The notes beneath the pieces were generated by a model that had not been told where the DNA came from, ran no database searches, and worked only from the letters and a program-made list of their open reading frames with translations. A program made the position numbers and the translations under genes. A stretch of DNA of 64,000 nt from Dipteris shenzhenensis (taxonomy: Eukaryota). Positions 22,513 to 57,149 of the stretch are shown in pieces. The DNA lies in assembly GCA_047967505.1 (NCBI GenBank), contig CM106538.1; one strand, written 5' to 3'. How positions within the stretch are numbered: the stretch's first letter is position 1; the number at the start of each line of letters is the position of its first letter.

Positions 22513-22749
22513 CATTTGGGATTTTGTTTCATTTGCATCATGGCATCCTCTTCCATGTTTGAAAAGGACTTTCTCCACATTTAAAAGTTTGATGGGACAA
22601 ACTTTTCTTTGTGGAAAGAACAGATAAGGGATGTGCTTATTCAAAAAAAGCAGATTAAACCCTTGGCAAAAATTGGAGCTAAGCTTGTAGATATGTTTGA
22701 GGATGATTGGAATGGCTTGGATGAATTAGCAAAGTCTGTTGTTAGACTT
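22513..22749 (+). pseudogene. 5' part of a second Copia gag, continuing at 54613
   Basis: KFDGTNFSLWKEQIRDVLIQKKQ...DELAKSVVRL joins HLAE...TTSNKVYLMK after 54620; ttagactt duplicated at 22742-22749 and 54613-54620. Confidence 0.75.
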
Positions 22750-26420: not shown

Positions 26421-27261
26421 ATAAAATCACAACAAAAGCATGAAGAAGAGATATTAACAGTAATAAAATAGCATCTATGAGCTTCTCTTCATGCTATAAC
26501 AAAAAGTGACTCAAAGCGTCGCTATATAGTGACTTTTTCCTCTGTTCCGTCGCTATATAGCGACGTTTTTAATTAAAAACGTCACTATATAGCGATGGAA
26601 AAGCGTCACTATATAGCGATGTTGTGGGTTAAAAACCGAGACTCTCGTTGCGCGGCGGTTTCTTTATCCCCTTCTCTAATCTCTCAAGTAAGCAAGGCAA
26701 TCTCTCCTCCCACCTATTTTCAACGACCTCCCACCTATTTCCGACAACCTCACACTCTATTCTCCACTCCTCACCCTTCTCCTAGCTCTTGTACTCCCTC
26801 TCTACCCTTTTCCCTCTTTGGTTTCTTGAAAGGAAGTTCTTCAAGAGGTGAGTTTGTTTCAACAATGTAGGTTATTTGTTTGTTAGCTTTAGTTTTGTGA
26901 GTGCTTCTCCTTGTATTGCTAAACCTGTAAACTAGTTTTCATGCTTGTTTTCAAAGGATTGAAACAAAAAACGAGATTTCAAGAAAGAAAGAACACTCAC
27001 CTCTTTTCTATATTTCTCTTCCTTCTCTTTCTCCTTGTCTCCTCAATCTCCACCTTTCAAGGAGTTACTTTTGTAATCTCCTCCTTCCTCTAACATCTTA
27101 TTTGAAAAATGGTATGTTTCCTCTCTTTTGTAGGCCAGTCCACAACACCGAGCGGGACGTACTATTTCAGGTAAGTGCTTCCTCTTTTTTCCATTTATTA
27201 TTTTTGTTATTTGCATTGGCCTGCAGCTAGCGCGTTAAGCGCTAGCTGTAGTGATGGGCAT

Positions 27262-28445
27262 AGGAACCCTCTCTTCCCCTCAATCTCTTTCCTTCTTCCC
27301 TCCTTCAATCTATTTCCTCCTCTTTTTCCCTCTTTCCTTTTCCTCTTCTTCTCTCTTTCTTTCCCTCTTTTTCCCTCTTTCCTTTCCCTCTTCTTCTCTC
27401 TTTCCCCCTTCTCTTAAGCATAAAATAAGCATGAGCATACGAATGCTTATGCTTATGCATGAGCATAAGAGAAGTAGACATATACTCATGCATAAGCATG
27501 AGCATATGTCTCTTTTTTCCTCTTTTCTCTTTCCCTCTTCTTCTCTCTTTCCTTTCCCTCTTATTCTCTCTTTCCCCCTTCTCTTATGCTCATGCATAAG
27601 CATAAGCATGAGCTTATGCTTATGCTTATGCTTATGCTGAAACATAAGCATGAGCATAAGAAAAGGAGAAATATGCTCATGCTTATGCTTATGCATGAGC
27701 ATAAGAAAAGTAGACATATGCTCACGCATAAGTATGAGCATATGTCTCTTTTTTCCTCTTTTCTCTTTCCCTCTTCTTCTCTCTTTCTCTCCCTCTTTCC
27801 TCTTTCCTCTTCTTCTCTCTTTCCCCCTTCTCTCTTTCTCTCTTTCCCCCTTCTCTCTTTCTCTCCCTCTTTTCTCTTTTCCTCTTCTTCTCTCTTTCCC
27901 CCTTCTCTTATGCTCATGCATAAACATAAGCATGAGCATAAGAATGATTATGCTTATGCATGAGCATAAGAGAAGTAGACATATGCTCATGCATTCCTCT
28001 TTTCTCTTTCCCTCTTCTTCTCTCTTTCTCTCCCTCTTTCCTCTTTTCCAATCTCTCCTTCCTTTCCCTCTTCTTCTCTCTTTCTTTCCCTCTTTTTCCC
28101 TCTTTCCTTTCCGATCCCTCTTCTTCTCTCTTTCCCCCTTCTCTTATGCTCATGCATAAACATAAGCATGAGCATAAGAATGCTTATGCTTATGCATGAG
28201 CATAAGAGATTCCTCTTCTCTTATGCTCTTCTCTCATTTCCCTCTTCTCTTCCTCTTCTTCAGATTCCTCTTCCTCTTCTTCCTCCTTCTCTCCCTCTTC
28301 TTCCTCTTCCTTTCCCTCTTTCCTTTCCCTTCGCTTTCCCCCTTTTCTTATTCTCTCTTTCCCCCTTCTCTTATTCTCTCTTCTTTCTCTCTTCTTCCTC
28401 TTCTCTCCCTCTTCTTCCTCTTCTTCTCTCTTCTCCTCTTTTCCC
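27262..28445. repeat. CT-rich and (CATAAG/CTTATG)n low-complexity satellite
   Basis: Pyrimidine tracts alternating with gcataagcatgagcata / gcttatgcttatgc hexamer runs; shares reverse-complement units with 49529-50085. Confidence 0.9.
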
Positions 28446-28759
28446 ATTAGGGAAAAAGGGAACTCATTTTGGGGCCCTGTAAGAAATTCACTATTTTTTG
28501 ATTTATTTCTCTCCTAAAAGACCTCAAAAATAGTAAAATATGGAAACGTGGCTCAGAACTGTCAGTAAGGACTACAGAACTATAAATTCAAAAAGGAATA
28601 AGATAATCTTTTGTCTGACTAACACGATTTTGCATTAAATATCCTCTTAGATTTTTTTTTGTTTACCAAAGATTTCGCATCTCTTTGGCCGACATGTGCA
28701 GGCCTTTCATAAAGAGTCCATCACTGAACTTAGTGATTGCAAGTTTTCAAAATATTCAC

Positions 28760-31593
28760 ATGGATACCGCCACACTTCCACGATTCATGTTACAAAACGA
28801 CTATGAGATTGAAAAACAAACTTCGCAACCTGAGAAGCACAAAAAATGGCCGATACTAGTGAGTCACTATCTCAGAAGAAGCGATTACACCATCTTCACA
28901 TCGATTTAGAAGAACAATATGCTCCAGCACAAAAAAGACAAAAGGATACGGTGTTGAATGCTCAACAGCGGGAAAATATGAGAAGAGAAGGGCTTCAACA
29001 TATTGACTTATGGTGCGATGGAAGCATATATCCAAAATGTCAAGTAAAAACCTCTACACCTCCATTTGTCAATCCCACCACATTACTGAGGTTTGCCGGC
29101 GATGGACAAAATGGACTTCTTGGTTATATTTCAGCGCAGTCTGCATTTGCGGAAACGTATAAAATGATGTACCTACAAGAAAAGGGGGCCAAGATGGAGG
29201 AGATAGCCATTCATGCAAAATTGGAGCAACAGTTGCAGAATGAAATTGAGGAGCATTCAAAGAGTAAAAAAGAGTTGACAAGAGCAAGAAAGAAGAGAAC
29301 CGTGCTTGGAGATAGACTATGTAGCAGGAAGATTAAAAACATTGCAAATTTGAAGGCTGGGACTGGTGGATGCAAGCGACGAATTCAGGAAGCAAGGTTA
29401 GATTGAAATTTATCATTTTGTATACTCAAAAAGGCTCTCTTCCAGACTATATCTATTTCGTCGATTGTCGCAAAATAAGAATGGAGGTGCTGAATGATAT
29501 AGTCATATTGTGTTGTTACTACAGGAAATTATTGGAGCCTACAAAATAAAATATGGACCCGAACCTTCTTCCTGTTAAACAAATGAAAGGATTGCTTTCT
29601 TGCGATGTAGCAAAAGGTTTGATTGAGGAAAAAAAATACAAAACAGTCAAACGCAATGTTGTAGAGGACTTTGTATCCAATAATCAAGTTGATGGCACTA
29701 TAATCCAAGAGGCTCTTGATGTTAGTGGAGTTAGCAGGAAGGGATATAATTCGATTTTCCATGCGATATCCTCAACTTTGAAAGATCAAAGGATTAAACG
29801 AGTTTTACTGCCAAATCCAGCAACCGTGTGGAGGATAAGAGGTCATTTGAATGAAAGTATAGATGAATTTATTGGGCAATATATCCATATTGAAGAAATA
29901 TTTCATGGTGTTAAAGGAACCACTGTGTATGATCCTTGGAACAATATATTTTTAGATCTGCAACAACTTCAAAAAAGAATGGTCGAGTTTTATGGAATAA
30001 CATTTGAGGAGTGCAAAGGCATTTTGAAATTTGTTATCAAACTGGATGAGTGTGAGGTTGTAAAGGAAAAGAAAATGGAAAAAGTTACTATTACATTGAT
30101 GAATGGAGCAATTGATACATCATTGACTGAAGCGAGTTCGAAGTATTTTAGTGTGCAGTTAGAGAAACACATATGGTGGTTAGGCTCCTCGTTCCAGGTA
30201 TGATCATTTTTTGTTTTATACTTGATTTTGGTCATTGTTTTCAAATCTGATATAGTAATACTTTTGTTTTCTATAATCTCGCAGGTGAAGACCGAAGACC
30301 ATGAAACACTAGATTGGGTGTTTCACCACACATAAATACCAAGAATAATCAAAAGACAAGTGCAAGGCGAGAATCTCCATGTTGCAGGAAAAGGTGATTT
30401 TCAAGTAGAATGGCACATGGCCGGGGATCTTAAAACACTTAAGTGCATGTATAACATTAGTAAAGGAGGCAACTCAAAGTCTCCTTGTCTTTACTGCAAA
30501 GAATCAGCTCAAGTAATGATTCAAAATGGTGGAAGAGAGCACCTAATAGAGATAAAGTTGACCCTGACTTCAAGGCCATTCTGGACATTCCACTATGTAA
30601 TGTTCACATCTACACATTGCATGGTCTATGTCGAATTATTGAGAAATTGGTATTTTTATATATTGGATTTGCTTGGAAACTCCATCCCGAAAAAAATAGA
30701 AAGGATGCTCTTCAAGCATTGGAAAAATTGTTATCCGATATAGGTCTGCATGGAGGAGATGTTCAAATCACAAAGGATTTTAAAAAGTCTACCAATGGCA
30801 AGGAGGTACCAATGAAGCCCTCTATTGGTGGTGTTAAGGCAAGAAGATTCTTGTCTCGACCCAAACACAGTAAGCAAGTAAGGCAAGGTAGAATAGTTTC
30901 AAAGATTAATTATGGATTGTGGAAGCAAGTCCATAATGTTGTGAAAGATCATGAGGCAGATGGGGAAGCACGAAATAGGAAGGCAGAGGTGTGGAGGTCT
31001 CTTGATCAACTCTTCATGTTCTGTGACAAAGTAACATGGACAAAGAGTGATTACAAGAACTTCGAGGAGGCAATTAAACATTTTGGAAAGTCAATGAAAG
31101 ACGCGTGGACAGCCTGCAATATAACTCACTACATGGTAAGGTTATGTCTTTTTCTTTTACTTAAGTGTGATCCTCTTTTTTTTTATTACTTACTATGCAT
31201 TCTTATGTCTTACAGCATATCATATACAACCACCTTCCCTATTTTGTCAAAAAGTATGGATGCCCAGCTATTTGGTCTACCCAAGGCATGGAGAAGTCTC
31301 ACTACATGGCATGTAATGCATTTTTTAGACACACACAACACTATGGAGGGAGTCAGAAGGCAAATAGTCTGAAGGAAGTCTTCCAATGGTTTTACTGAGG
31401 CATACTACAGAGGCTGCATGCTAAAAGAAAAGTTGCTAGCTCCAAAATCAAGCTTGCTTTTCTTCTAGCCCAAAAGCAAAGACGAAGACAAGCTCTAGAC
31501 AATTCAATTGCAGCAGACATAGACAATGGAGGGAATAGAAGATATTTAGAAACCATAAATGGACAAGTAAACATGAATAGGACTCATTTGTAA
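28760..31593 (+). pseudogene. RAG1/Transib/Chapaev-like DDE transposase gene, 4 exons (introns 29397-29524, 30198-30284, 31136-31215), few lesions
   Basis: Spliced product has FVIKLDE, AGDLKTL, PCLYC, TLHGLCRI, THYM|HIIYNHLP and GCPAIWSTQGMEKSH, collinear with RAG1 core motifs; canonical GT-AG introns that preserve frame. Confidence 0.7.
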
Positions 31594-31904
31594 CTTATTG
31601 GTGTTATGTCCACATGTTTTCAAACTCATTCAATGGAAATTTTTTTAGTGGAACAAGTGACTCTTGGTGTTATGCATGAAAAGTATTTCTTTTGTGAAAC
31701 ATATGATCTGAACTTAATACAATTTGTTTACAATTTCAATATATTGTTCACTTAATATTTAACGACACCACTCTATGTAAATGTACAAATCATTTCATCA
31801 TCAACTTATTAATCATTTATACAAGATCATACCAGATATCAAAGACTTTATACAAATCAGTTCAAATTTAATATAATGTTTGTGCTATATTCGATGACTA
31901 AATC

Positions 31905-33543
31905 CTATTTCTCCCAGGGCCTGCCGATCGGAACTCTCTTTTTGATCTTGATTGGAGTCTTTTTCTTCTTTATTGGCTTGATGTCGACTGTCTCTTTATC
32001 CTTTTCTTCAGCTCTCTCCACCTGTTCCTCTTCTTGGACTGTGTGGCCTGATGCAATCATGGGTGGCTCTCGAAACCTTACGAGCTGGTGTTTTCCATAG
32101 CCCCCCAGATATTTGGGCTCCTTAACACCACATGCTAATGCATAAGAAGTGTAAGACAAAAAGTAAGCGGCCCTAGAGACCTGCTTATTCACATAATCTC
32201 CAAATATATCTATGGCAGACAACCTCTCTATCAAAATGATCTTTTCCTTTTGCCATGAAAGAACATGTCCACCTAAATCCCTGGACAAACATTTTAGGAA
32301 GTAAACAATGGCTTCTCAATTCTTGCTCAACTGCCTATGGTAAATCAAGATCTTGGCACTGCCTAGATCATGAATATAATGAGCTAGGCCTGACATTTTG
32401 CGAAACCCAACCTGCCTGCTTCCACTTGATCTCTGGAGGAATGTGTCATCCTCAATTTGTAGCTGCCACATATCAAAGGATTGGAGTGATACAATACACA
32501 ACCTACAAAAACAAAGTTAAGCAGAAGCCAAAGTATTTGATTTGAAGTATCTTCTCATTTTCATCAACAACAAGCAGTTCATCTTTCCAAAGATTTATCC
32601 CTCTCCCCTCTTGTCCAACCTCTTCTTTAGGCTTTTTTGTGTATAGTGCTGAGAGATTCATAGCTTCCTGTGTGAGCTGGAAGGCAGCTTCATCTGGCTC
32701 TTGGAACTTTTCAGCCTCTTTGAAACAAAATGAAAGGGCCTCTACAGGATCAAACATTGTTTCCAAAGCCAGTAGTGAATGGTCATCCTCTATGCCAACC
32801 TCCTTGTCAAGCCTTGAAGCCTGGGCAATAAGGGAAATGGCATAATCCTCCCTCAAATCAAACATACACTCTATATCATGGAGGAAAACATAATCCTTTC
32901 CACCAATCAACACACTTGGAAGCATGGGCACTGCATAGTTGCTACTCTGAACATCAAAATCTTCAACTGGCTCTGCTCCCCTCAGAGTTTTTGTCCTCAG
33001 TTGAACAAGGTCAAGAGCAGCCACTTGCAGCCCCTCATCCTGAATGTTGATATCTTCTTCTTGCTCTGCCATTTCTGTGACCAAAGAAACATCCTCCTTT
33101 TCCTCTGCTTCAGATGTGTCTTCTTCTTCTATTTCCTGCCCTTGTTCATCCAAAGACTCCTGACTGAAGACAATGTACATAAGAAATGCCATGCTCTCCT
33201 CCAGCACTCTGCACTTTCTGGTGTGCAAAGTATAGTTGAATTTATAGTGATCAGGCAGGCTGTCAAATCTTCTGTTCACATGGTACCTCAGCCTGTCATT
33301 GGAGACAATATGATTTATGTGCACAAAAACCTTTTCTCCTTCCACAATTCTTCCTGCCTCTGTCAGTTCTTTGAAGGTATCCCAATAGTCTGAAAGAAAA
33401 TCTTTGTGCTACTCCAGTACAGAGCTCATTGTGAACTCCATGTTGAAAATACTGTGGAATATATGGAAGTTACTCTGAGCCTTGCATTTGTGAAGAAACT
33501 CAAATAGGAGCAAATCTGGAGAATTGTCCTCTTCTGGTTCCAT
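31905..33543 (-). pseudogene. Unknown ~500-aa protein with an acidic middle region, degenerate, convergent with the RAG1-like gene
   Basis: Long ORF 32503-33345 plus adjacent fragments (31905-32288; ATG at 33543); no motif recognised. Confidence 0.55.
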
Positions 33544-33867
33544 TTGTTTTTTGATGGAAGAATCAGCACTCTGCTCCAGTCTCTTCTTTTTGCATGTTCA
33601 AAAACTTATATACTATGAATTCTATATGCTGACATATGCAATCAGTGAATGCATTGTATATCACCAAATAATTCCTTCATGACATCTCATGACTCACCTG
33701 GTGATTGCTGTGGTCTAATAATAGCAACAGAAAAGTCCAGCTTCCTCTTGAAAGGTGCGGCCTGGGAGCCAGCTGTTCCAAAACAAAAACATTTCTCATC
33801 ATCAAGCAAGATTTCCACAGGGCTAAAGATAGCAAATTAATGAGGTAGAAGTGAGAACCAAATTAGA

Positions 33868-34575
33868 CACAGGAATTTGCAGCAAAATGCGATATGGGCT
33901 GTTTAGAGAATTATAAACCACTCTCCTCGCATTTTGTTGCAAATTCTCAAGTTCTGTTCATGTGCATGTCAAATCAAGCACTGGGTTCATCTCAGTGATT
34001 CCTGGACACTATGATCTCATATGCAAGAGAAATAATGGAATGAGTGAAACTTTTCATGAGGAATGTGTCAACAACAGGAATCTGCAGCAAAATGCGATAT
34101 GGGCTATTTAGAGAATTATAAACCACTCTCCTCGCATTTTGTTGCAAATTCTCGAGTTCTGTTCATGTGCATGTCAAATCAAGCACTTGGTTCATCTCAG
34201 TGATTCCTGGACACTATGATCTCATATGCAAGAGAAATAATGGAATGAGTGAAACTATTCATGAGGAATGTGTCAACAACAGGAATTTGCAGCAAAATGC
34301 GATATGGGCTATTTAGAGAATTATAAACCACTCTCCTCACATTTTGTTGCAAATTCTCAAGTTCTGTTCATGTGCATGTCAAATCAAGCACTTGGTTCAT
34401 CTCAGTGATTCCTGGACACTATGATCTCATATGCAAGAGAAATAATGGAGTGAGTGAAACTTTTCATGAGGAATGTGTCAACAACAGGAATTTGCAGCAA
34501 AATGCGATATGGGCTGTTTAGAGAATTATAAACCACTCTCCTCGCATTTTGTTGTAAATTTCTAGTTTCTATTCA
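33868..34575. repeat. 205-bp tandem repeat, ~3.4 copies, each with an internal palindrome
   Basis: AGGAAT(T/C)TGCAGCAAAATGCG recurs at 33871, 34076, 34281 and 34486; palindrome arms TTTGCAGCAAAATGCGA...TCGCATTTTGTTGCAAA. Confidence 0.92.
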
Positions 34576-37449
34576 TATCCAACTACAATCTAATTTTTGG
34601 GTGATTTACCACATTCTTGAACAGTATAAATTGAAAATGTAACAAGAAGGATGGAGCTGAGTGAAGACATTGGGACATCAAAAATCCAATGGATGGAAGA
34701 AATAAATGTTAAAAAACATTGAAACCAATCTAGAATTCTGACCTTTTTTTTCCTTTTCCATGCTGATGGAGTTGCACTGGTAAATCTCCTGCTCTTTCTC
34801 TAGCTTGAACTTTGCACTCTATAGGTAACCTAGAGATCTGGCAGTAGTAGTAGTCTTCAGGCAGGTTGCAGTCTGGATGGAGTGTGCTGGGTAGGAAAGG
34901 ATCAGAGAGAAGGAAATGGAAGATGTGAGGGTCGTGGCAGGGATGAAAGATTGGGAGATAGGGGAGGGAAAAGTGGTTGTGGTATTGATGATGAAATCAT
35001 GAATGGCACAAGTTCCAAGGCATAAAGTGTACTTTCACACGTGCCAAATTTCAAACTCCAAGAGATCTGGGTCCCATCCACACGTGTGAAAAACGACTAC
35101 ATTCCACACGTGTGGGATTTAGAGATTCTTTATTTCTATTTGCACTTATTTGTGGTATCCTGTTTTAGACCTCTTGCCCTCCAGTCTCTGCTCTCTTGCC
35201 TCCCTACCTTCATACTCTGCAACATCAGCATCCTGTCCAGCAGCATAGGTTCATCCTCAGCACAGGTTACTCCTCAGCAGCACAGCACATCCACAGATAG
35301 ATTCCAGGTCAGTAACAATGGGTTCTCCCCTTAGTCTCTGCAATCTTCTTGCCTAAAATAGAAAAAATCCATCCTGCATGGAAATGCATAGACTCAAGTC
35401 AAGACAGAGAAATCACTGTAGGAATGCAGATCTTCAAGTGTGATATTTGCATGTGAGGGTAAAACTGTACTTATGGGTTCTCCCTTCAGTCTGTGCACAT
35501 TTCTTGCCTTCCGTAGACTCAATCCATCCTGTATGGTTATGCAAACACCTTCAAATGACTGAAGGCATATTCTAGCATGCTGCCTCATGAATTTGCAGCA
35601 AAATGCGAGGAGAAGGCATTAGGAATTTCAAACTGCTGAAATCGCGTTTTGTTGCAAATATTGAAATATTGCTTCATCAACCCCTGTCATTCTGGTTTTG
35701 TGACTTCCATAGCTATAATCTTCTTGCATAAACTCCATTCATACTGTATTTAGTTGGAGAGACATAGAAATCACTGTAGGAGTGCACCAGCATGTCATTT
35801 CAAAAATTTGTAGCAAAATGCGATGTGGACCTGTTTGAAATTCCAAACTGCTCATATCGCATTTTATTGCAAATTTCTCTATATGGCTTCATCCACCCCT
35901 GTGATTGCCTTTTCTTTGTTAGAACATGTTCTCCATGTCTGTGATCTCTTTCCAATCCTTTGTATGTAGTTTTTCAGAGTGATGGCAAGAACCAAGTCAA
36001 TTGCAAGGAAAGTTGGCAAAGGGCCAGGGCTTGCAGTAACAACAGCTGGGGCAGGTACCAAGAAATTTAGTGTGCCTCCAAAGGGAAGAGCTGCACATGG
36101 CAGGAAGGGTAAGCCAATGAGCTTGCTCAAGCAAAAGGCCAAAAGATTGAATCAGGGTGCAGGTGTGCTAAGGGAGATCAGGAGGCAACAGAAAGCTATA
36201 GGCTTTGCAATACCCAAAGCACCCTTTCAAAGACTGGTGAGAGAAATTTGTGACAGTTGGAACCTTGGCTTCAGGTGGAATAGAAGTGCCATTCTTTCCT
36301 TACAGGAAATGGCAGAGGATTACTTGGAGAAATATTTTGAAGATGCAATGCTTGTAGCAGCCCATGCTCACAGGGTGACTTTGATGGCCAAAGACTTCAA
36401 CACTTTGTCCAGAGTGAGATGGAGGTATGACAAGCTTATTCATCCTGTGGAATGGCAGGACATCAAAATGAGAGACATATTGCTAATTCCACCTACAAGG
36501 AAGTTGAAGGTTGATGAGGTAAAGGTTGTTGAGGTAACACACTCAAAGAACACCAGAGGGAAGGCTGCTTATGAGGACTCACTGAAGCAGTAAATAAAAG
36601 AAACAAAATCTGTTATAGATGTGGAGACTAGAAAGAAGGAGCTACAGATACATAGAAGGTTGAAGGAGCTGGGCCCTGATGTAGTTGTTCATATTGAGGA
36701 TGAAGTTTCAGTGAATGATTTTGACTTGACAAAACAATGCTTAGCAGCATTGGCTCATAAGAATGAGTATTGCTCAGATACTATCATTCTTGCAATGCTC
36801 TAGTAAGTGTCTATAAATTTACATTTTTTGCAAATCAATCCTCCTTGTACCTCCTTTATAACCTACCCTAATTATTTTCTGATCCTATGCAGCATGATGA
36901 GAAGCTGGCTTCACCCCTCTGTATAGCATACAGTCCATATTGTTGATCCAGCCATTTCTTCTAAATTAAGAGATGCAAAGGAGACTCCCATGAGTATTTC
37001 CAGCTGGTTCAAACACTGCAATTTTGAAGTAATTGATGTTTTGCTACTTCCATACCATAGTAGGTATGTGGGTGACTACTTCTTTTAAGATTCTTCTTTA
37101 AGATTGGGAACTCTTGTAGCCTTTGATTTTCTTATGCTTTTTTCCTTATGCAGTGACCACTGGAGTTTTGTGTCTATTGACATCCAGCAGAAGCAATGCT
37201 TTCTATTCAACTCTCTAAAAAACCTCGGGGGGTCCACCTTACATAAGCCAGCTATACAACGTGCGTTCGAAAGGTATTTAAAAAACCCCTCTGTAACCAC
37301 ATTTTATCTATTTATATACCCCTACTATGAATTTTTGGATCAATAATTATATCCCTTCAATAAATTCAAAATTTAAGAAGCCTATATTTTTTGCCCTCCT
37401 CTTGTACATTTTAGTGTAAGTTGAAACAGATGCTACTTTTGAGAAATTG

Positions 37450-38005
37450 TATTGTATAATTGAATAAAACCATTTAAATTTTATGTCGCCGAGATGCATG
37501 CTTTACATCCATACTAGTACCTAATAGAATGTATTTTCAACTTTTGATCTTTTCAATTCTCAAATTCTCATGTATTTACTCCACCTTATCCAATTTTGTT
37601 TCCCTTGCATGCTCCCAAACTGTCACTACCTACTAGAGATTTGCATGAAGTAACTTGAATTGTACTGTGAATAAAATGGCACAAACTTATAAGAAGATGG
37701 CTTAAACTTTAACCTTGTGTTAATCTATTGTATAATTGAATAAAACCATTTAAATTGTATGTCGCCTAAATGCATGATTTACATCCATACTAGTACCTAA
37801 TAGAACGTATTTTCAACTTTTGATCTTTTCAATTCTCAAATTCTCATGTATTTACTCCACCTTATCCAATTTTGTTTCCCTTGCATGCTCCGAAACTGTC
37901 ACTACCTACTAGAGATTTGCATGAAGTAACTTGAATTGAACTATGAATAAAATGGCACAAACTTATAAGAAGATGGCTTAAACTTTAACCTTGTGTTAAT
38001 CTAAT
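37450..38005. repeat. Two direct copies of a ~278-bp unit near the left end of the P-like element
   Basis: tattgtataattgaataaaaccatttaaatt...taaccttgtgttaatct starts at ~37450 and again at ~37727. Confidence 0.9.
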
Positions 38006-42002: not shown

Positions 42003-42357
42003 GATCAATAGTATACCTAATCAAAATAAGAGAAAAATATAAATAAACTCATAACTTTTAAATTCTAAATGGTATGCCATAGTCTAAATCACTAATGGTA
42101 TTTATTGAAGATCAATATTCTAGCTTAAGAGGAGAGAAAAATAAAGTATTTCACAAACGCTATATCAAAACAAATAACTATAGACCTTCTAATTCTTGCT
42201 TGTATCAACACAAATATTACATAAACATTATTAATGAGTCATTTGAAAGAATAAATTAAAAAAGTTGACATTTTTTATATACATAAATAGATCATGTACT
42301 AGAAAGAAAACCATCAATCTTTGGAATATTATTTAGAAACTATAGTGCTACAAAAGG

Positions 42358-43731
42358 TTACAATGCATCATGTCGTAATGCACTTTCACATGTGACTTTG
42401 AATATAGCTTCAAATGTATGAGTAACATCTGTTGCAGTAGGTCTAGCTTTAGGAATAGGATTTCTCATTTCCTCTATTCTCTTCCACCAACGCTTTAAGT
42501 GATCCAACTTAGTTGCATCTTGGATGTGAACAAAGTACTTGTAAGCTAGCCGATACAACTTTTCCAATGAAAAGGCTGTAGCATAAATATCAGTTTCCTT
42601 GGAAAACTTTGCATATGGAAAAGTATACAACTCAGGAGCCAACCACTTTCTTCGCATGCATCGCTCTTTGAATTGAGGATCACATCGATCCTTGCCATCA
42701 TTGACATATTTATCACTCTTGCTAAATCCCCAATCGATAATTCCTATAAAGACCTTATCAGACTCACTATCAAAGTGAAGCATAATGTTCGAAGGATGCA
42801 AGTCATTATGCAAAAGATCTTTTCCATGCATGTATTTTAACGTCCCCATCAAAGTACCAGCTAGATTTACGGCATGAGTACGGACACGAGATAAATGGTC
42901 TAGCTCCTCTCCCACATAGACTGAGTTCATAGCATTTAACCTTGACCATTTGTCCAATGTCTCCCCATTCCAATACTGGTATACCAATCTTGGAGGATTT
43001 ATCACACGAGCAATCGTGCGAACAAGTCCTCTATGAGGTAATTGGGCTTGCATTGTTTCCATATTTGCCATTAACTCTTGCATGGACCTTCTCTCTTCCC
43101 TTTCACTTGGCTTTTGAGATACCTTAAGTTTCTTAATGGCAAAGGTCTCTTTTGGATCAAAGCAGTCTACACCAATGATGTTACCTTTCACCACTCTTCC
43201 ATATGAGCCTTCACCCAGCACATAATCTTTCTCTTGTACATGAATCTGCTGCTTCTCAAGAAAAAACAAAGATGGCATCTTCAATCCTCTGGGATTGACA
43301 CATTCTTTTGAAGAACTGGCATTGAATGCTTTCCTCTTTGAACTCATAACTGCCTTCCACTTTAAGGAAAACCAATCAATCAACTCTTCTTTATTATTTG
43401 TATCTCTGGGATTGAATGTGCTTGTCCGCTTTTCATAAACACTTTTAACTCTCCCTAGTTCTATGCGAATACTCACACAAAAATTATCTTGAAATTCATA
43501 TTGCATATTCCATTGTGGATCTTCATTCTTCATCATGGTAATGACATCAGAGGAAAGATCCACACAAAGCTTATCCATCCCTCTTTCCCCTAAGTCAAAA
43601 TACTTTTCCAAATCTTCCTGCGTTTTTGATAACAAGCTCATGCAAAGACACTTCGAGAATATTTTTCGCATTCCTTCCTTGAATCTATATTCATATAACA
43701 CGTGTTTTTTATGACTCTTCATCTTGTCCAT
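42358..43731 (-). CDS. Protein kinase-like protein (457 aa), transposon cargo
   Basis: Uninterrupted ORF with LGEGSYGRV, FAIKK, HNDLHPSN, IDWG, WLAPE, ETDIY and RPTA subdomain motifs; ~160-aa N-terminal extension of unknown type. Confidence 0.88.
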   Translation of the reverse strand: MDKMKSHKKHVLYEYRFKEGMRKIFSKCLCMSLLSKTQEDLEKYFDLGERGMDKLCVDLSSDVITMMKNEDPQWNMQYEFQDNFCVSIRIELGRVKSVYEKRTSTFNPRDTNNKEELIDWFSLKWKAVMSSKRKAFNASSSKECVNPRGLKMPSLFFLEKQQIHVQEKDYVLGEGSYGRVVKGNIIGVDCFDPKETFAIKKLKVSQKPSEREERRSMQELMANMETMQAQLPHRGLVRTIARVINPPRLVYQYWNGETLDKWSRLNAMNSVYVGEELDHLSRVRTHAVNLAGTLMGTLKYMHGKDLLHNDLHPSNIMLHFDSESDKVFIGIIDWGFSKSDKYVNDGKDRCDPQFKERCMRRKWLAPELYTFPYAKFSKETDIYATAFSLEKLYRLAYKYFVHIQDATKLDHLKRWWKRIEEMRNPIPKARPTATDVTHTFEAIFKVTCESALRHDAL

Positions 43732-43794
43732 GTTACCTTCTGCACATAAAACAAAATTAGTTGCTTTTGTAAGATTATCCTCTCTTTCTCTCTC

Positions 43795-43835
<41 letters not shown>

Positions 43836-43906
43836 CTTCCTCTCTCTCTCACACACAACTAAACGGTTTGATTCTTGTGAGCATGTAGATGTATTTCCAA
43901 TTATTG

Positions 43907-44795
43907 ACTTGATTTTCTAAGCATTCTTCCAAGGGAATTGCAGACCGTGTTCAGAGACCGGAGTACTCCCAAGGCTAGATTGCTTACATACTATACATTG
44001 CACGACTTGATTCTCTAAGCATTCTGCCAGGGGAATTGCAGACCGTGTCAAGAGACCGGAGTGCTCCCGAGACTAGATTGCTTACATACTATACATTGCA
44101 TGATTTGATTCTATAAGCATTCTACTAGGGGAATTGCAGACCGTGTCAAGAGACCGGAGTGCTCCCGAGGCTAGATTGCTTACATAGTATACATTGCACG
44201 ACTTGATTCTATAAGCATTCTACTAGGGGAATTGCAGACCGTGTCAAGAGACCGGAGTGCTCCCGAGGCTAGATTGCTACATACTATACATTGCACGACT
44301 TGATTCTATAAGAATTTTGCCAGGGGAATTGCAGATCGTGTCAAGAGACCGGAGTGCTCCGGAGGCTAGATTGCTTACATACTATACATTGCACGACTTG
44401 ATTCTCTAAGCATTCTGCCAGGGGAATTGCAGACCGTGTCAAGAGACCGGAGTGCTCCCGAGGCTAGATTTCTTACATACTATACATTGCACGACTTGAT
44501 TCTGTAAGCATTTTGCCAGGGGAATTGCAGACCGTGTCAAGAGACCGGAGTGCTCCCGAGGCTAGATTGCTTACATACTATACATTGCAGGACTTGATTA
44601 TGTAAGCATTCTGCCAGGGGAATTGCAGACCGTGTCAAGAGACCGGAGTGCTCTCGAGGCTAGATTGCTTACATACTATACATTGCATGACTTGATTCTA
44701 TAAGCATTCTGCCAGGGGAATTGCAGACCGTGTCAAGAGACCGGAGTGCTCCCGAGGCTAGATTGCTTACATACTATACATTGCATGACTTGATT
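43907..44795. repeat. 98-bp tandem repeat, ~9 copies
   Basis: GGGAATTGCAGACCGTGTCAAGAGACCGGAGTG recurs at about 43933, 44031, 44129, 44227, 44324, 44422, 44520, 44618 and 44716. Confidence 0.95.
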
Positions 44796-44814
44796 GCTTA
44801 ATACATACTAAGAC

Positions 44815-45160
44815 TATAGAAATATTAAAGCATAAAGCATAAATGGCATAGAAGCATAAACTAAAGAAGCATAGGCATATATAAACATATTCCAAGAAAA
44901 TATTAAAGCATAAAGCATAAATGGCATAGAAGCATAAAGAAACATATAAACATATTCCAAGAAAATATTAAAGCATAGAAGCATAAAGAAACATATAAAC
45001 ATATTAAAACATAGAAGCATAAAGAAACATATAAACATATTCCAAGAAAATATTAAAGCATAAAGCATAAATGGCATAGAAGCATAAACTAAAGAAGCAT
45101 AAATGGCATAGAAGCATAAACTAAAGAAGCATAGGCATAAACTTTCAAGAAAATATTCCA
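44815..45160. repeat. AT-rich AAGCATA-based minisatellite
   Basis: Repeated aaagcataaagcataaatggcatagaagcataaa units. Confidence 0.85.
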
Positions 45161-48100
45161 AGCAAGTGTTTCAAGCATGTGTGGATGTTAAGTAGACCTA
45201 TTTGTTTTCCCCTTTCACCTACCTTATCGGTTTCATTTCCATACATCTAAGTTGTTTTCCCCTTTAACCTTTTGAGGGGTTACCAAATGAACGTTGCCCT
45301 TAACTCGGCACATTCAGAGATCGTTCGTGGAGACGTGATGGGGGCATAACAGTATGCAAAAAGTACAGAGCATGGTACAAGTGCGTACCTTGATGCGGGT
45401 GTAAAAATGAACTATCATATCTTCTCAGATACACACTATAGGAGTGGCCAACAGAGACTCTCATTCTGCTGGGTAAGGTCTTCAACTATGCCTCCAACCA
45501 CGTACAAACAAAACTCCACAGCAGCAAGCCCCCAATAGTAAGCGGCTCATGTGCATAGTTGTAGTGCCTCACTACAACTGAATGACAAACTCCAGGCTCA
45601 AATGAATCTTCACATGCATCTCCCACGTCCACAACCACTCCATCAACTCAACCGGTCTGTGTAGTTGGGCATCAACAGCAGCTCCAAGTGCAAGCTAGGT
45701 GCCTCAACCCTCTGGCTTCTCCAACAACTCCAGAGGCTCTAGCTTCAATGACATTCAAGCTCAGCCACCAGCCCACAGCCGCAATAGGACATGTAAGGCG
45801 CGGCGATAGATGATATGGACGAGAATTGAATGTCAAGCCAACAAACACGAGTTTTGTTAGATGAACCGCCAAAGGTTTCTGCGAGCAATCGTCTCTCGAT
45901 CGGCGGTAGATTGCCCATGGAATTCGAGGACTTTGCAAATAATTTGTGTCCGCACTTCCTGCCCGGCCTCACGAAAGATATTACGCCGGATCTTCGCCCG
46001 CTGCAATTTCGTGTTTCAAACAGCTTACTGAGTAAGAGGGAACACCACTGAGTGAAATAATATTTACGCCTTCTTTATATGGCAGGGCAATAAGCGCTCC
46101 CAATGCGCAGCTACATTAACACATGAAGATGAACACGTTCGCCTCTCAGGAGTGAGCAAGCACGCTGTACTACACTATAAACCTGGGAAGCATACAACTG
46201 CACTTCGGCCTTGTCAGAGCAATAGAGCAGAAGGAAAGTGGGGGAAGAGAAAATAATCTTCAAACCTAGCTGCCACCCTCTCCTCGAAACGAAAATTTAG
46301 CAACTGGAAATACAGAAAGTTGTGGACAATTCTCTTGAAGCTGTAAGGCTCAAGGAGTCGCAGTTCATGGAGTCCATACGATTTCTTGGAGTGCAGAATT
46401 AAGCCACCCACGAAGGTACAGATTCCAAACGACTGCTCAATGAAAGTACCTGGCTGCTGTTGAGTGACTTGAGTCTTCAGTCTTTAGTGACGAGTCGTGA
46501 GTCGTCAAAACTGCAAACAAGTTGAGCTTTCTTTGAACTGGAGGTTGATGGTGGTGGCACTCAGTGGCAAGTGCTCGAGCTAAGAGCATGATGTGAAAGC
46601 AAGAGCAAAGTTTGAGAAAAGAGTGGAGGAGACCTAAAGGATAAGAGATGACAACCACACATCTAACAAGCAATCAACGGTGATGATGGAATCTAAGTTG
46701 ATCTGTTTGATCAAGGGTTATTATGCAAGCCACATGGATTAATTTGTTTAAATTTTATTAATATTATATAAAAATAAGAATATATTATATAACCTTTAGT
46801 TTATAAAGTGCTTTATCAACATTAACCGGTTTTCCAAAGAGAGCTTATTAATCTAACCTTGATTTTCAAGGTATATCTTTTAAATATCATTAAAGTCGAG
46901 ATTGCCATAAAATTTTATCCTTTTTAATAACCTGCTTCTCACCACTTACGATGGTTTTTTGCCATTTTTACCAGTTCAAAATACACTAAATGACGGTTTT
47001 TTTCTAACACTGAGGAGCATACCGATACAATCATCGCAGGGATCTTTTTCTATGAGGGTATGGAGCTTTGGAGCAATGACTCCTCCTATGTGATGCGGAT
47101 GCACTCCGAAGGTCTCACCTTCTACTCTGTCACACACTTCGATGACTAGCACCCCTCCCAGTATTGGATAATCCCCTTCTTAGATTTCAACACACAAATG
47201 AATGTAGCCAGCAACCCCTTCGACCTCAACATGGCTCTCACCTCACCCTCTTGCCCAATTGGCTATCTATCCAAGAGTATTCTGATATGAGTAGAAATAT
47301 CTTATTTGTGATGCATGTAGGAATTCTCATCCAGGCCACAATTCAATTCTTGAGGCCACAAAGCTTGAGGTATTTGATTCTTTACTACAATTACAAATGC
47401 TTTTTTTTTTCCTACCCAAACCCTATCTCCTCTCTTCACCCCGATTAGTGAGCAAAGACTTTATAGGCATATCTAAAAAAATCAAATCTCTTCTCCATCC
47501 TTGACCCAATGGACCTAGCAGCTTCTTTGATTCTCTTCGTGAAGTTTTTAGTCGATGGGATGGCATGGAGGGCCCCACCTTCCACACTACCAATGACTTC
47601 ATGATGATCTTCCTATGGGTCTAGTTGATATTTTTGGTCGAGGAGGAATTTCTTATGGGGCTAACATCGGTGAGATCTTGATCACCATGCAAGACGATCT
47701 GTGGAGTGTCTAGAACTTGAGGAGAACTTGAGAGACCACAGTTGGATCAATCCAACACCAATATCTACTTATCATGACTGCGAGGGGTAGTCAGCACATT
47801 AAAATTTTGAGTCACCCATCAACAAATTGTGATTGCTCTTACACATCATCCTAGATGAAACAATATTTAAAAAATAACTTTTAATTTAGATCTGAGAATA
47901 AACACACCCTACCTGTTAATTTTAAAACAGTGTATAAAATTACCCCTGCTATAAATATATTTCTGTAAGTCTTGAGAATTAAAATACCCCTCATTTTGAA
48001 CTCTCACAGTATACTTACATTTCCTAGATGGACCCCCCGAGTAAAAAACACACACAGAGAGCTGAAATTGTAAGTGCTGTGTGTGCTTTTTGAACTTAAA

Positions 48101-48917
48101 ACTTCTTTATTTTGATATCATACTAACTAAATTATACATATTGCAGTTGTATTAGAAGGCTTTTAGATGCATTGGATCACTGTCCTCCAAATGTCTCTCT
48201 TTTGGATTCAATAGAGCCAATAAGTCTAGAGGTATAAAGTCTATTAAATGCTATGTCTTTGAAATTATTGAATAATTTTGTTTTGTGCTGATGCTAACAG
48301 TTTCTAACATATCTTTCTAACTGTACATACACCACAACAAAATGATTCAAGTAGCTGTGGATGGAGGGTGCTGATCAATGCAAAATATATACTTTCAAGC
48401 TACTTTGAGAAGGAACAGCCAGACCTGGTAAGGGAAAATGCTTTTCATTTAGCTTGAAGATAATTCGTAATGATACAAAGTGTTCTAAATTATCCTCTAC
48501 CATTGCAGATGAAAGAGGATAGGTTCAGCTCCAACTATGTACATAATTTTAGAGCTCATACAATTTGGAGGTTTTTGAGCTATGCCTCCCCCAAACCTAT
48601 TGTACCAGCTACTGTGGAGCTGGGTGAAAGCTCTAAAGTACAAGAAGGTGTCATACACCTTGATCCCACAAATGAAGCACCTAATGCTGAGGACCAGAAG
48701 CCACAGGAGCAATCACATAGTGCTGAGGAGGAGCAGACACAGGAGCAAAGACCTGCTGCTGATGTTGAGGAGAAGGTGGAGAAGCAGCAAAGAGAGGCTC
48801 CTGGGGCAGTGGAGGAGAAAGGATGGAGCACGGCCAGGATGGAGCAGCAGAGAGAAGATCCTCTAGAAAATGTAGAGCAGCCTCTGGATCAAAAGCTGTA
48901 CATAAATAGAAAATGGA

Positions 48918-49528
48918 TGTCAGAAATATGTTCTACAGATTCAGCTAAACAGTTCTGTACAAAATCTTACTTGATTGAATACAGGAGGACTGATGGTAGC
49001 AGAGTCAAAAGGAGTGGAAGCTGTGCGAGCGCTTCCGGAGCGAGGAGTAGCAGTGGGAGTAGGAGAGGGAAAGGGACCTGGCTGATACTGTGTCTCCAAA
49101 CCAAGTGGAGACCTATAGGAACGTGAGTGTGCTGACTCGTCTACATCTCCCGAGTCAGCATAACATAAGCTGCCCTTCCTACTCTTCCTGCCCTTATGAG
49201 AGGCATGTGCAGGTGATGACCCCTCGATCGAAGGGGCATGAGGGGACGGCTGGGCAGTACGTCCAACTGTCGGTGTAGGGGAGGGAATTGCTGAGGTTCT
49301 CTGAGATAGCAAAGAGAAGAATCTCGCTACCTCCTCATCGTGCTATGTGGAAGAGGAGTCGAACCAGGGGTAGTCGTAGTGCTAGGTCCGAGAGGAGTCA
49401 GACCATGGGTAGTCCTCAGGGTAGTCACTGAGAGGAATCAAAGTCCTCTGAAGCATATAGATCGTGAGCTCTCCTCTTGCGAGGCTATCCGTACTTGTCG
49501 GATGAGCAACGTGATCCCATGTCTAACA
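48918..49528 (-). mobile_element. Probable solo LTR (~610 bp)
   Basis: TG...CA with inverted termini TGTCAGA/TCTAACA (6 of 7 match); GC-richer than flanks; TSD only tentative (tgga/taga). Confidence 0.5.
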
Positions 49529-50085
49529 TAGACACAAACACGAAAACAAAAAACAAAAAAACAAACATAAGAATAGGCATAGGCACAAGCATAGGCAAAG
49601 AGGGAGAGAAGAGGAAGAAGAGGAAGAGGAAGAGGAAGAAGAGGAAGAGGAATCTGAAGAAGAGGGAGAGAAGAGGGAAAAGAGAAGGGGGAGGAGAAGA
49701 GTAAGAAGAGGGAAAGGAAAAAGGGAAAGAAGAGGAGAGAAGAGGGAAAGGAAGAGGAAGAAGAGGAAGAAGAGGAAGAAGAGGGAGAGAAGAGGAAGAA
49801 GAGAGAAAGAAGAGAGAAAGAAGAGGGAAACGAGAGGGGAAGAGAGGAGAAGAGAGAAGAAGAGGAAGAAGAGAGAAAGAAGAGAGGACAAGAGAAGGGG
49901 GAAAGAGAGAATAAGAGAAGGGGGAAAGAGAAGGGAAAGGAAAGAGGGAAAGAAGAGGAAGAAGAGGGAAAAGAGAAAGTGGACGAGAAGAGGGAAAGGA
50001 AAGACAGAAAGGAAAGAGGAAGAAGAGGGAGAGAAGAGAAAGAAGAGAGAAAGAAGAGGGAATAAGAGGGAAAGGAGAGATTTAT
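49529..50085. repeat. GA-rich satellite, inverted counterpart of 27262-28445
   Basis: gaggaatctgaagaagaggg and gagaagggggaaagagagaataag are reverse complements of units at ~28250-28370. Confidence 0.88.
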
Positions 50086-53000
50086 CCTAGTCTCATTAAG
50101 CATTGCTATTAGTTTAATTTACCACTCTAATTCATATTGCTTTTTTGCAGTTACTCAAAAGAAGAGAGAGCTCAATAAAATGCAAAGACATAGAAAATTT
50201 AAAAATTGAGATAACACAGACTCCATAAATAATGTAGAGACGTGACGCGCATTTTGGATAGGAACAAGTGGTTTATTGAGCAAGAGGCAATGGGAGCGAC
50301 GGTCGATTGGGCTGAGGTGGCTGCTCGCATGGTATAAGTTTACTCCTACTTGTAATCTCACTTTTTAAATTGTTTTATTCTTTAAGTTCCAATCTAATTT
50401 TTGATTTATATGGTTCACTCTTAGGGTCAAAGCTCAAGCGTCCCATCATCGGAGGCGAGCGATCACCAGGGCCAAGGATCAGATGCATGTGACGAGGATC
50501 AAGGAGAAGGCGCAGCTCACGAGGACCAAGGAACATGCCAACAAGACGAGGACGATTCGGATTCGGATGAGCAATAGTAGTAGTAGTGGTAGTAGCATTT
50601 TCTTCACCCTGTATGTCATTTTGTATATCTGCTCATTTGAGCAATTTTGTATCGCCCTTTCAAAAGGGTAATTTTGTAACAAACAATGTTGTATATGTTC
50701 GACATGTATATGCTTTTGTTGCTCGATCATTTCATTTGAGCGATTTTGTATTACCCTTTTCGCAAGGAAAATTTTGTTATAAAAAAACTTTGTTTTGTAA
50801 TAGCAAGCCCTGTTTAGCCCCACTAATCCTTTTTTTTAAGTTTTATTAATCGTCGCTATATAGCGACGTTTACCAGTGTCGCTATATGGCAACGATTAAT
50901 AGTGTCCCTATGTAGCGATGTTTATCATCGTCACTATATAATGATGCTTTATAGCGACGGTTCTTTTTCGACACTTTTAGTGACTTTTATAGCGACGTTT
51001 GCGCCCGTGAAAAAAAAAAATTTAATGTAAAAAGCGTCGGTATTTTCATCAAAAAATGGCCTATGACTTGTAGTGACTTACATCTTGGGCTCGCCATGGA
51101 CGGTGTGAATCCTTTCGGATTATGCTCGACATCTTGGTCGACATGGCCCATAGTCGTGGTGAATTACAATATCCCACCATGGCTAACAATAAAAAAGGGA
51201 CACCTCATGCTTGCACTACTTATGCCAGGGAAGTACAAGGCAAAAAGTATGGACGTGTACATGGCACCTTTGATAGAGGAGTTACAGATATTATGGAGAG
51301 GAGTGCAGGTCTTTGATATTTCCAGAGCTCCTAGACATAACAATGATATTTTGGTCAGGGGTATCTTGATGTGGACCATGCATGACTACCTAGGATATGG
51401 AGAGTGCACAGGTATGTGGTTGTGTCTCTACAAGTATAATACAGGATTATGCTTTTATGTCTCTCTTTTGCACGCATGTCTTATACTAACACATTCATGC
51501 ATGCGTGCAAGACTTGTTACAAGTGGGTACCTTGCTTGTCCTGTTTGTGGACTAGGTTTGAAATTGCTTGCATGATACTCCAAACATATGAGGAAAAATG
51601 TTTATGAAGGTCATGCTCGATACCTTCCGCTCGACCATCTCGCATGTGGAGGTCAGCTTGATCCACCACCATCATATTTGAAGGCAAGTGACTAGATTCA
51701 AGTTTGGAGGCCCAATGGAGAGGCACGTCCTTCTGGTATGAAGAGGCTATCAGTCTTCCTTATTGGGGTCAGTTACAAATCAATCATCTCTTGGATCCCA
51801 TGCATATCTTCAAGAATGTGGGGGCTACTATTTGGGCACACTTGGTTGGTTCCAAAGACTCGAGAGGAGTGCGAGAAGACTTGCGTGCTATGAATAGGAT
51901 ATCTCGTTTGTGGCCCCAAGTGCATGCTTCGGGAAAAGTTGTCCTCCTGAAAGCAACATGGATCCTCTCTACGAGGGAGGAGGCACCGGTCAAGGTGGAC
52001 ATTGCCTCTTTTCAAACACCGACAGGGTACATGCGTTGCTTGAAAGGAGCATTTTCAAAGGACAATAAGCATAGTGGGCTCAAGTCCCATGATTGGCACA
52101 AGGTCTTACACGTATTCTAAGCTATAGAATTAGTGTACCGATAATCATGATGCATTAGCGTAATTATGATTATGTTATATTGTTGACATGACTTCTTTGT
52201 TGCTTTGATAGTTCATCCTCCCAATTACAATAAAAGGGTGCTTACAAGAAGATGTTAGAAATGCTATATTCAAGATCTGTGGTATTTTGAGGTATACTTA
52301 CTATCAAATCGCATTGATTGCATTTTCTTCAATTTAAGCTGATTAATCTGTAGACTAATTATGAAAATATCTTACATGGATATGTGAAATAGGTGGATAT
52401 CTCAAAAAGAGATCTCCATATCGAGCATCAAGAAGGCCAAGTCCACTTGCTTGTGCACATAGTTGATGAGGTGGCTATTGCAGGTACCGTTCATAGTCGA
52501 TGGATGTTTTTTCTCGAGCAGTTTATGAAAACTTTGAAGTATTTGTAAGACAAAGAGCAAGACCAGAAGCAAGCATGGCGGAGGGATGGCTTGTGCAAGA
52601 GTCATTAGTATATATCACAGAGTACGGAGATTCTTGCATCCACGGATCCTGATATGCTGCAAGCTTGGCATAACAAGGATGATGATCACATCGTTGGCGA
52701 GGTTCCCCAAGGAAAAGGGATTGAAAGAAAGATGAGCGAAGAGCAAATGGAGAAATTCAATAAGTTTTGTATCCTCAATAGCCCTGAGATGCAGAAGTGG
52801 ATTGAGAGATATGAAGTGGTCAAAGCAGAAAGAATAAATGCAAGGACGAGATTCAGAATAATGTACAGGCGATCGCAACCATATCCATGGGATCTGGCTC
52901 TTCCATGCGGCAGTGAGAAAAGATAGTAGCGGTTTCTTTGCAATAGACTCCACCAAACATTGGACCGATGAAAGTGATACTTTTGTTCTTCTCGAGCACT

Positions 53001-56900: not shown

Positions 56901-57149
56901 TGATAGACAGCCATGCACCAAATGTGTAGGAAATGGTGCCACCAGGTGCTCCCATAGGTACACAATTAAGGGTAGATGATGGAGTCCAAGGAACAAATTA
57001 AATTAAATTTGGACGCATATTCCGACCAAGACAAAGAGAATCAAGATTTTTGTACCTTACCAAACAACCCAAGGAGCCTTAATACAAACTATCCACCACC
57101 ATCACCTATAAGTCCACCCATACATAGGATTGAATACACTAGTTCACAT

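Follow-up and report, generated by a model that had tools for sequence, protein, structure and literature searches.

The window analysed here is a stretch of 64,000 nucleotides from contig CM106538.1 of the Dipteris shenzhenensis assembly GCA_047967505.1, and the subject is the interval 27219-50099 within it. This interval is probably the inner part of a 30.4-kb block bounded by terminal inverted repeats (TIRs) of CACTA type, which holds a decayed copy of a transposon related to RAG1 and Transib between satellite arrays. The element is made up of a transposase gene (gene A), a convergent orphan gene (gene B) and a histone H3-like gene, here followed by a Ulp1-type protease. The lineage is deeply divergent within the RAG1/Transib group, and its best-defined landmark is a motif starting with CATTAGG at 28445. 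The three-gene set is considered a real element type because it recurs in distant relatives from other organisms. An earlier description made from the bare letters (the sequence-only reading) had proposed an undescribed multi-gene transposon at this place, with borders at 27219 and 50099, a 6-bp target-site duplication (TSD) and a terminal hairpin. A recurrent three-gene unit of transposon type is borne out by the results below; the borders, the duplication and the terminal hairpin are not. Coordinates are collected in Table 1.

The RAG1-like gene of that reading is confirmed at the level of predicted structure. A first AlphaFold model of the gene A family (835 amino acids, 14 sequences, pLDDT (predicted local distance difference test) 52.6) gave 39 Foldseek matches at E<=1e-3, to RAG1, amphioxus BbRAGL and Helicoverpa zea Transib (HzTransib) only. 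After the alignment had been enlarged to 31 sequences by open reading frames (ORFs) from metagenome loci, a model of the core of one relative (L008, 527 amino acids) reached a pLDDT of 80.8 and a predicted template-modelling score of 0.79. Foldseek returned 48 matches for it at E<=1e-3, the best at E 1.3e-9 with TM scores of 0.52-0.54, and among the matches listed all are RAG1, BbRAGL or HzTransib. In VIA-align the model superposes on RAG1 with Z 19.0 and a root-mean-square deviation of 4.3 over 392 of its 527 residues (model 1-476 against RAG1 552-1029), followed by HzTransib (Z 18.2, 356 aligned) and BbRAGL (17.9), with the P element at 11.2 and Hermes at 7-8. As modelled, the catalytic core of gene A is built as a whole like the RAG1 core, a likeness that goes beyond the RNase H fold.

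Relatives of gene A were found by a scan of metagenome contigs, which yielded 34 loci with 23-83% identity; the contigs do not exceed 6.1 kb, and most of them are too short to show the neighbours of the gene. The relatives form many diverged lineages, with more than 20 loci at 30-83% identity in one assembly, and intact long ORFs are present in L014 (843 amino acids), L007 (699) and L013 (802). The copy in the window contains small introns and is decayed: its reading frame is interrupted by stops near 30333 and 31390 and shifted near 30524. Across the family, conservation, with invariant D, CxxC and H residues, is concentrated in KLDE, in GDLKTLK followed 20 residues on by PCxYC, in TLHxLCR and in HxxxxH, which lies 19-24 residues before STQGME. 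Named proteins did not appear among the matches: the largest exon of gene A matched only four longer proteins among 5.8 billion, and one relative used as query matched 13, none of them named in either case. Pfam gave no match for gene A itself and no family for four relatives at E<=1, and a PDB sequence search with single gene A returned chance matches only.

The unknown minus-strand gene noted by the sequence-only reading is real and conserved, gene B being found by tblastn at 10 of the 34 loci (L001, L003, L004, L005, L009, L010, L012, L014, L015 and L020). In nine of these ten it closely follows gene A on the opposite strand, L020 being the exception. An intact form of gene B has 619 amino acids. 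Across loci the proteins are 22-31% identical and align in LPxLPxFxIxGKxYxLLxDIQxLFDLREDYAL, in SINLW..LL..DEN and in a C-terminal ...ILVERL.A.D.FG...; the window copy carries LPxxxIxGKDYxxLxDIxxxFDLREDY and has in-frame stops near 33409 and 32316. At the sequence level four gene B proteins and two pieces from the window matched no Pfam family, whether Kelch, RAG2 or other. The Atlas gave no usable match, a PDB profile search nothing below E 0.95, and a homology search by word index only two proteins. A complex prediction for gene A (L014 330-843) with gene B exon 1 (39-403) scored 0.00; it was made with no alignments and with the fold of the partner uncertain, and is neutral on binding. The 205-bp tandem array beyond gene B is present as had been described, with 3.5 copies, and arrays of lineage-specific palindromes stand upstream of gene B in L001, L003, L012 and L014 as well.

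The third gene encodes a protein with a full histone fold. The Pfam scan covered window ORFs of at least 60 amino acids and, in 36400-39500 and 44800-49500, ORFs of at least 30; the H3-like ORF matches PF00125 at E 1e-25, and its residues 38-150 match H3 of the PDB (22-137) at E 2e-23. H3-like genes are found downstream of gene A on the same strand at 3 of the 34 loci (L007, L008 and L022). At L007 (3059-3238) and L008 (2587-2856), on the plus strand, the H3-like gene is followed by an ORF whose start, MVR(R/V)K..., resembles an H3 tail and leads into a proline/serine-rich stretch. In the window, the earlier proposal of a joint H3-Ulp1 gene holds for its histone part and for its interruption by a nested insert, the protease part being less secure: the N-terminal half matches PF02902 weakly (E 0.013, below the curated cut-off), and the short pieces after the insert gave no match in Pfam. 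The motifs HW before and PQQNDSSSCGW after the insert were recognised by eye, as were the exon limits, and removal of the nested insert appears to rejoin a Ulp1-like reading frame.

Copies of the region 28450-33800, which spans genes A and B, were sought in public sequencing runs, and 20 runs from 12 studies contain parts of it. In run X1 (2 million letters) 48% of the sampled words of this query are present, which suggests that the region is a high-copy repeat in the organism behind that run. Runs that contain near-identical 31-mers of the region with genes A and B carry the labels of six coded organisms or of algae and plant metagenomes. In addition, contigs of X1, X2, X3 and X12 were placed on 24900-27300 at 85% likeness, a comparison that addresses the left junction only and in which X1, without cover over 26520-26762, is uninformative for those positions.

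Upstream of gene A lies a conserved non-coding motif with the general form CATTAGG-N20-22-GGCCYTGTAAG, which is found on the same strand 290-500 bp before the gene in L003, L005, L012, L014, L022 and L025. Of the 13 loci with the N-terminus of gene A, these six have the motif, and the other seven extend only 2-433 nt upstream. In the alignment CATTAGG and GCC.TGTAAG.A are invariant, separated by 20-22 nt of free sequence, and upstream of the C of CATTAGG there is no conservation across the aligned loci, the similarity of distant relatives beginning exactly at 28445. The sequence-only reading had allowed for an alternative left end at ~28447, and had taken a loss of similarity at that place as telling against its own borders; for the left side this is what the homologous loci display, and a start at 28445 fits them better than one at 27219. 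The motif is either a left terminal recognition site, composed of a heptamer, a spacer and a second block, or a transcription start with a 5' mini-exon ending in a GTAAG donor. A layout of heptamer, spacer and second block is that of recombination signal sequences (RSS) and of Transib ends. CCTAATG occurs once to the right of gene B, at 48680-48686; it was considered as a right end and rejected, as it has neither the second block nor a matching flank. A stem-loop of the TCCCTAATTTCAAGGGA type directly follows the conserved GTAAG at L022 (187-215) and L025 (212-240), and one of its arms, CCTAAT, is complementary to ATTAGG in the motif.

To the left of the motif and to the right of the protease gene, the CT-rich and GA-rich satellites face each other as previously described. 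Their best inverted pair (28310-28404 and 49858-49952) extends over 95 nt with 96% complementarity, and the two arrays are true inverted relatives, beyond similar composition. It is nevertheless rather unlikely that they are the long, degenerate TIRs of a larger RAG1-like element with ends at ~26700-26765 and 50080-50850, in which CATTAGG would be a promoter or first exon. Besides the inverted pair itself, this interpretation draws on the leftward extent of the repeated unit (to ~26765 in X1 and ~26703 in X2), on the CT-rich sequence directly upstream of the motif in L012, on a CT/GA inverted pair (372-414 and 5032-5074) that flanks the two genes of L014 and on the consensus GTAAG donor in which the motif ends. 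It is opposed by the absence of a pair of TIRs with TSDs, since a scan of 26600-28900 against 48900-50900 returned satellite self-matches only, in agreement with the earlier statement that no classical TIR is visible. Furthermore, the proposed ends themselves (26640-27260 and 50080-50848) share nothing beyond 10-mers, and in L003, L005, L014, L022 and L025 CATTAGG is preceded by sequence that is not rich in CT and has no relation from one locus to the next.

The unit is enclosed by a block with the features of a CACTA transposon. Its TIR, CACTACTACACACGGATCC, has two matches in the window against 0.01 expected, the second of them inverted, and subterminal repeats of a palindromic TCGCTATATAGCGA-type motif stand at 23630-23700 and 53760-53850. 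Transposase_21 is present, whereas the 3-bp TSD expected of the family was not seen, the flanking 3-mers being ACT and GCA. The arms are symmetrical, 23630-24526 and 24996-25267 being inverted copies of 52903-53814 and 52632-52903 at 90-96%, and the mirror-image satellites are consistent with this symmetry. The sequence-only reading had placed the whole interval in one intron of the second CACTA gene; this has found no support, because both transposase copies point away from the centre of the block, and, with the copies on opposite strands, the flanks do not form two halves of the surroundings of a single gene. A second CACTA-type terminus, CACTACAAGTCATAGGCC, at 51058-51075 on the minus strand, abuts the start of the right-hand Transposase_21 match; a second CACTA framing the unit was considered and rejected, as this terminus has no partner end in the window. 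Outside the TIRs, duplicated pieces were noted (23323-23535 and 25318-25530, 22259-22513 and 53980-54236, 6166-6950 and 22513-23300), one inverted at 92% and two direct at 89-92%, which suggest that other copies of CACTA and hAT elements served as the insertion site of the block or recombined with it.

Given such an enclosure, the three genes may be thought of as immobile cargo, a host gene cluster captured and amplified by a CACTA, or a pair of CACTAs, through the outer ends at 23533 and 53938. The unit does lie wholly inside good CACTA TIRs, all three of its genes are dead here, and in X1 the CACTA region and 26763-27300 have similarly high depth. However, diverged relatives of gene A carry their own partner gene and the conserved upstream motif, as transposon families do, tblastn found no Transposase_21 match at any of the 34 loci (on contigs of at most 6.1 kb), and the CACTA TIRs are without a flanking TSD, which together make a captured cluster improbable.

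The borders first proposed fare worst. That a discrete three-gene transposon extends exactly from 27219 to 50099 in an intron of a CACTA gene, with GCATTG as its TSD, the hairpin as its terminus and satellite arms instead of TIRs, is now very improbable. An empty CACTA site would then read ...ttatttgcattg joined directly to ctattag...; the positions given for GCATTG, the hairpin and the inverted satellites are correct, and there is a GT at 27171 and an AG at 50149. The GCATTG repeat nevertheless carries no weight as a TSD, because 80% of 5000 random window pairs of equal size have at least one 6-mer in common; the two edges (27170-27260 and 50075-50160) have seven different ones. The hairpin has its perfect 10-bp stem, but it is not unique, as the window contains 12 matches to such a stem at ~7 sites, where 30 Markov simulations gave 0.77 on average. 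More directly, the junction 27218/27219 is bridged by two diverged contigs of X2, one over 27063-27265 with 24 differences and 5 gaps and the other over 27134-27281 with 11 differences. Depth in X1 is unbroken over 26763-27300 (46, 206, 208, 227, 287, 344, 278), after zero over 26520-26762, and no loose end falls at the junction among the 24 of 116 loose ends listed. Ten contigs of X1, two of X2 and three of X3 cover 27234, a base of the loop, and all of them extend to both sides. Because contigs and depth run through the junction, the hairpin and the supposed left flank are parts of a single repeated unit covering at least 26765-27300, in which the hairpin is internal and not a terminus; pyrimidine-rich patches likewise occur to the left of the supposed end, from 26700 and 27000 on. 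The net length of the proposed interval was also understated, as it comes to 12,055 bp rather than 11.5 kb once the 10,818-bp insert and an 8-bp TSD have been removed. A Polinton/Maverick, suggested by a 6-bp TSD together with a cysteine protease, is dismissed, as the scanned window ORFs contain no Pfam match to polymerase B or a retroviral-type integrase and the 6-bp repeat is a chance match.

Several observations weigh against a decayed RAG1/Transib-like transposon within a CACTA block, and are considered together. PDB profile searches with 7 and with 31 gene A sequences did not bring up a chain of RAG1 or Transib at any E value up to 10, so that, with no similarity at the sequence level, the kinship is one of predicted structure. 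The conserved residues may correspond to the D-D-E triad (D600/D708/E962) and the C2/H2 zinc site (C727/C730/H937/H942) of RAG1. No inverted copy of the motif was found in the window or at any of the 34 loci, nor was a right end or a TSD of the RAG1-like unit, and mobility of this unit in its own right is hypothetical. The link with an H3-like gene is seen at three loci only, and is compatible with one clade as well as with repeated captures. A single CACTA in which the insert was already present could be the ancestor of all the bridging contigs, and an old insertion at 27219 is therefore still conceivable. Finally, the context of the window is transposon-dense and plant-type according to Pfam, the description 'plant-type' resting on matches to copia, hAT and CACTA families.

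On the interpretation of the unit as a RAG1/Transib-like transposon, active members would move by DDE cut-and-paste with a zinc-stabilised core, by analogy with RAG1 and Transib. Gene B may be an element-specific accessory or DNA-binding factor, and the H3 and Ulp1 proteins may act on chromatin or SUMO at the element. The P-like element with its 8-bp TSD inserted later into the unit. Because its three genes are broken and it carries this insert, the window copy could move only if mobilised in trans or if carried along by the CACTA ends. A more far-reaching proposal is put forward tentatively. It envisages a deep, undescribed branch of RAG1/Transib in plant- or alga-type genomes, with RSS-like ends composed of CATTAGG, a 20-22-nt spacer and GGCCYTGTAAGAA. 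This branch would have a non-Kelch partner of its own, analogous to RAG2, and an H3 variant of its own, with or without a SUMO-type protease, which would prepare chromatin for transposition.

Table 1. Positions of the features in and around the enclosed unit, in window coordinates (bp, base pairs; aa, amino acids).
Feature	Position	Strand	Remarks
hAT	7289-8582		Pfam
Copia element	18335-21421	-	Pfam
Left CACTA TIR	23533-23551	+	CACTACTACACACGGATCC; end of 30.4-kb block
Transposase_21	25229-25528	-	Pfam
Internal cluster of palindromic CACTA motif	26513-26623		TCGCTATATAGCGA-type; adjoins start of minus-strand transposase copy
GCATTG	27213-27218 and 50100-50105		Proposed TSD copies; chance match
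Hairpin cagctagcgc-gttaa-gcgctagctg	27224-27248		Perfect 10-bp stem, 5-nt loop
CT-rich satellite	~27260-28444	+	~236-bp periodicity; palindromic GCATAAGCATGAGCATAAG inserts
Conserved non-coding motif	28445-28485	+	CATTAGG-N21-GGCCCTGTAAG(AA)
Gene A	28846-31518	+	RAG1/Transib-like transposase pseudogene
Gene B	32064-33507	-	Orphan partner, pseudogene, convergent with gene A
205-bp tandem array	33869-34576		3.5 copies, 96%; palindrome with 20-nt arms per unit, GAATTTGCAGCAAAATGCGA / TCGCATTTTGTTGCAAATTC
Histone H3-like ORF	35982-36593	+	MARTKSIARK... and full histone fold
Ulp1-like N-terminal half	36594-37215	+	H3 frame after one stop; cut by nested element
TSD of nested element	37216-37223 and 48042-48049	+ (first copy)	TAAAAAAC, 8 bp
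Nested P-like element	37224-48041		10,818 bp; TIR CTCGGGGGGTCCAC, 13/14 bases match inverted partner
276-bp x2 array	37450-38003		In nested element
624-aa putative transposase ORF	39917-41791	-	In nested element
Protein-kinase ORF	42358-43848	-	Uninterrupted, 496 aa; Pfam Pkinase E 2e-20
98-bp x9 array	43906-44795		In nested element
Ulp1-like remainder	48050-49126	+	Exons by eye ~48050-48069, 48147-48231, 48301-48427 (PQQNDSSSCGW); 220-aa tail ORF 48464-49126
GA-rich satellite	~49590-50080	+	Inverted counterpart of CT-rich array
Second internal cluster of the same CACTA motif	50848-51000		TCGCTATATAGCGA-type; upstream of plus-strand Transposase_21 ORF
Transposase_21 ORF	50955-51572	+	Pfam
Right CACTA TIR	53920-53938	-	23/24 bases match left TIR
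Copia element	55234-56976	+	Pfam

The nested insert has the short TIRs and the 8-bp TSD of P element-like transposons. Its 624-amino-acid ORF belongs to a large family (1899 representatives at E<=1e-3) and by language-model features lies nearest to clusters of TNP-like RNaseH/GBD type (P-element/THAP9), with a score of 0.93. Pfam gave no family for this ORF, 12 relatives bringing up only unrelated add-on domains, and a PDB sequence search with the single ORF returned chance matches only. The protein-kinase ORF lies upstream of the putative transposase ORF on the same strand. Miniature inverted-repeat transposable elements of ~240 bp at 10513-10747, 16374-16618 and 56275-56518 have the TCGGGGGG(G)TCAC ends of the nested element, and such ends are also present at 3809 (+) and 57769 (-). 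The same end motif is carried by an inverted pair, 3795-4058 and 57521-57782 (80%), ~54 kb apart, which may represent two separate elements or a single giant one. Towards the left of the window, DUF659 (7289-7840) and a hAT dimerisation domain (8268-8582) identify hAT-like genes, adjoined by an ORF at 4466-4705 (+) with a strong match to DUF7869 (E 1e-22).

The textbook example of a transposase that became an enzyme of the immune system is that of RAG1 and Transib, RAG1 being the protein that cuts antibody genes, and most of the relatives known for the two are either Transib elements with a single gene or RAG1L-RAG2L pairs of animals. The present lineage widens the known range of the fold, as it has RAG1 architecture without detectable sequence similarity, and would add a separate case in which a RAG1-type enzyme has an accessory subunit. 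A testable idea also arises from it, namely that the histone carried by a transposon serves to mark or open the chromatin of the transposon itself, and the motif of heptamer, spacer and block is a concrete substrate for biochemistry. For annotation the lesson is that a short direct repeat next to DNA of low complexity is no evidence of insertion.

Among known systems, Transib of Helicoverpa zea (PDB 6pqx/6pqn) is like the present lineage in its superposable core, presumably in a conserved acidic triad with CxxC...HxxxxH, and in forming a DNA-transposon-like family with many diverged copies. The lineage differs in lacking a sequence-level match and in having two or three genes rather than one. 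Transib elements have TIRs with a CAC-type heptamer and a 5-bp TSD; here the conserved 7-mer is CATTAGG rather than the CAC-type heptamer, and no pair of TIRs with a 5-bp TSD of Transib type was found around the unit (26600-28900 against 48900-50900). Plant CACTA (En/Spm) elements supply the TIRs, the palindromic subterminal clusters and the Transposase_21 that enclose the unit, and Ulp1-type genes are known to occur within DNA transposons of plants. In contrast, the present block contains its transposase twice, in inverted orientation, and lacks a 3-bp TSD, and a RAG1-like gene with gene B and H3 is not the CACTA gene set, occurring without CACTA genes at the 34 loci. With P element/THAP9-type transposons the nested insert shares the 8-bp TSD and short TIRs, and differs from them in an ORF without Pfam match and in its protein-kinase ORF.

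The RAGL/ProtoRAG elements and RAG1-RAG2 provide the best structural matches, the RAG1 cores and amphioxus BbRAGL, and also a similar gene arrangement: the second gene is tail-to-tail with the transposase gene in the window and at nine loci, as the RAG1L and RAG2L genes are in the excerpt of PMC7204232. They differ in that gene B has no Kelch or RAG2 match (at the sequence level), in that an H3-like gene is attached and in that the hosts are not animals, as judged from the copia, hAT and CACTA context. The Pyrenophora hAT, by which a histone H3-like gene was amplified according to the excerpt of PMC6710886, similarly has an H3-like gene travelling in a DNA transposon. As described there, it is a fungal hAT with a transduplicated host gene, whereas here H3 is tied to a RAG1-like transposase in lineages with 23-45% protein identity. 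In the open-access literature searched, no RAG1-like element with a histone, Ulp1 or such partner gene was found, nor was the CATTAGG motif. The predicted fold of this lineage is that of RAG1 and Transib, while its sequence, gene content and end motif differ, and an overlap with the plant members of the Transib-like proteins that the excerpt of PMC9435367 counts in plants (39), fungi (20) and bacteria (42) is possible.

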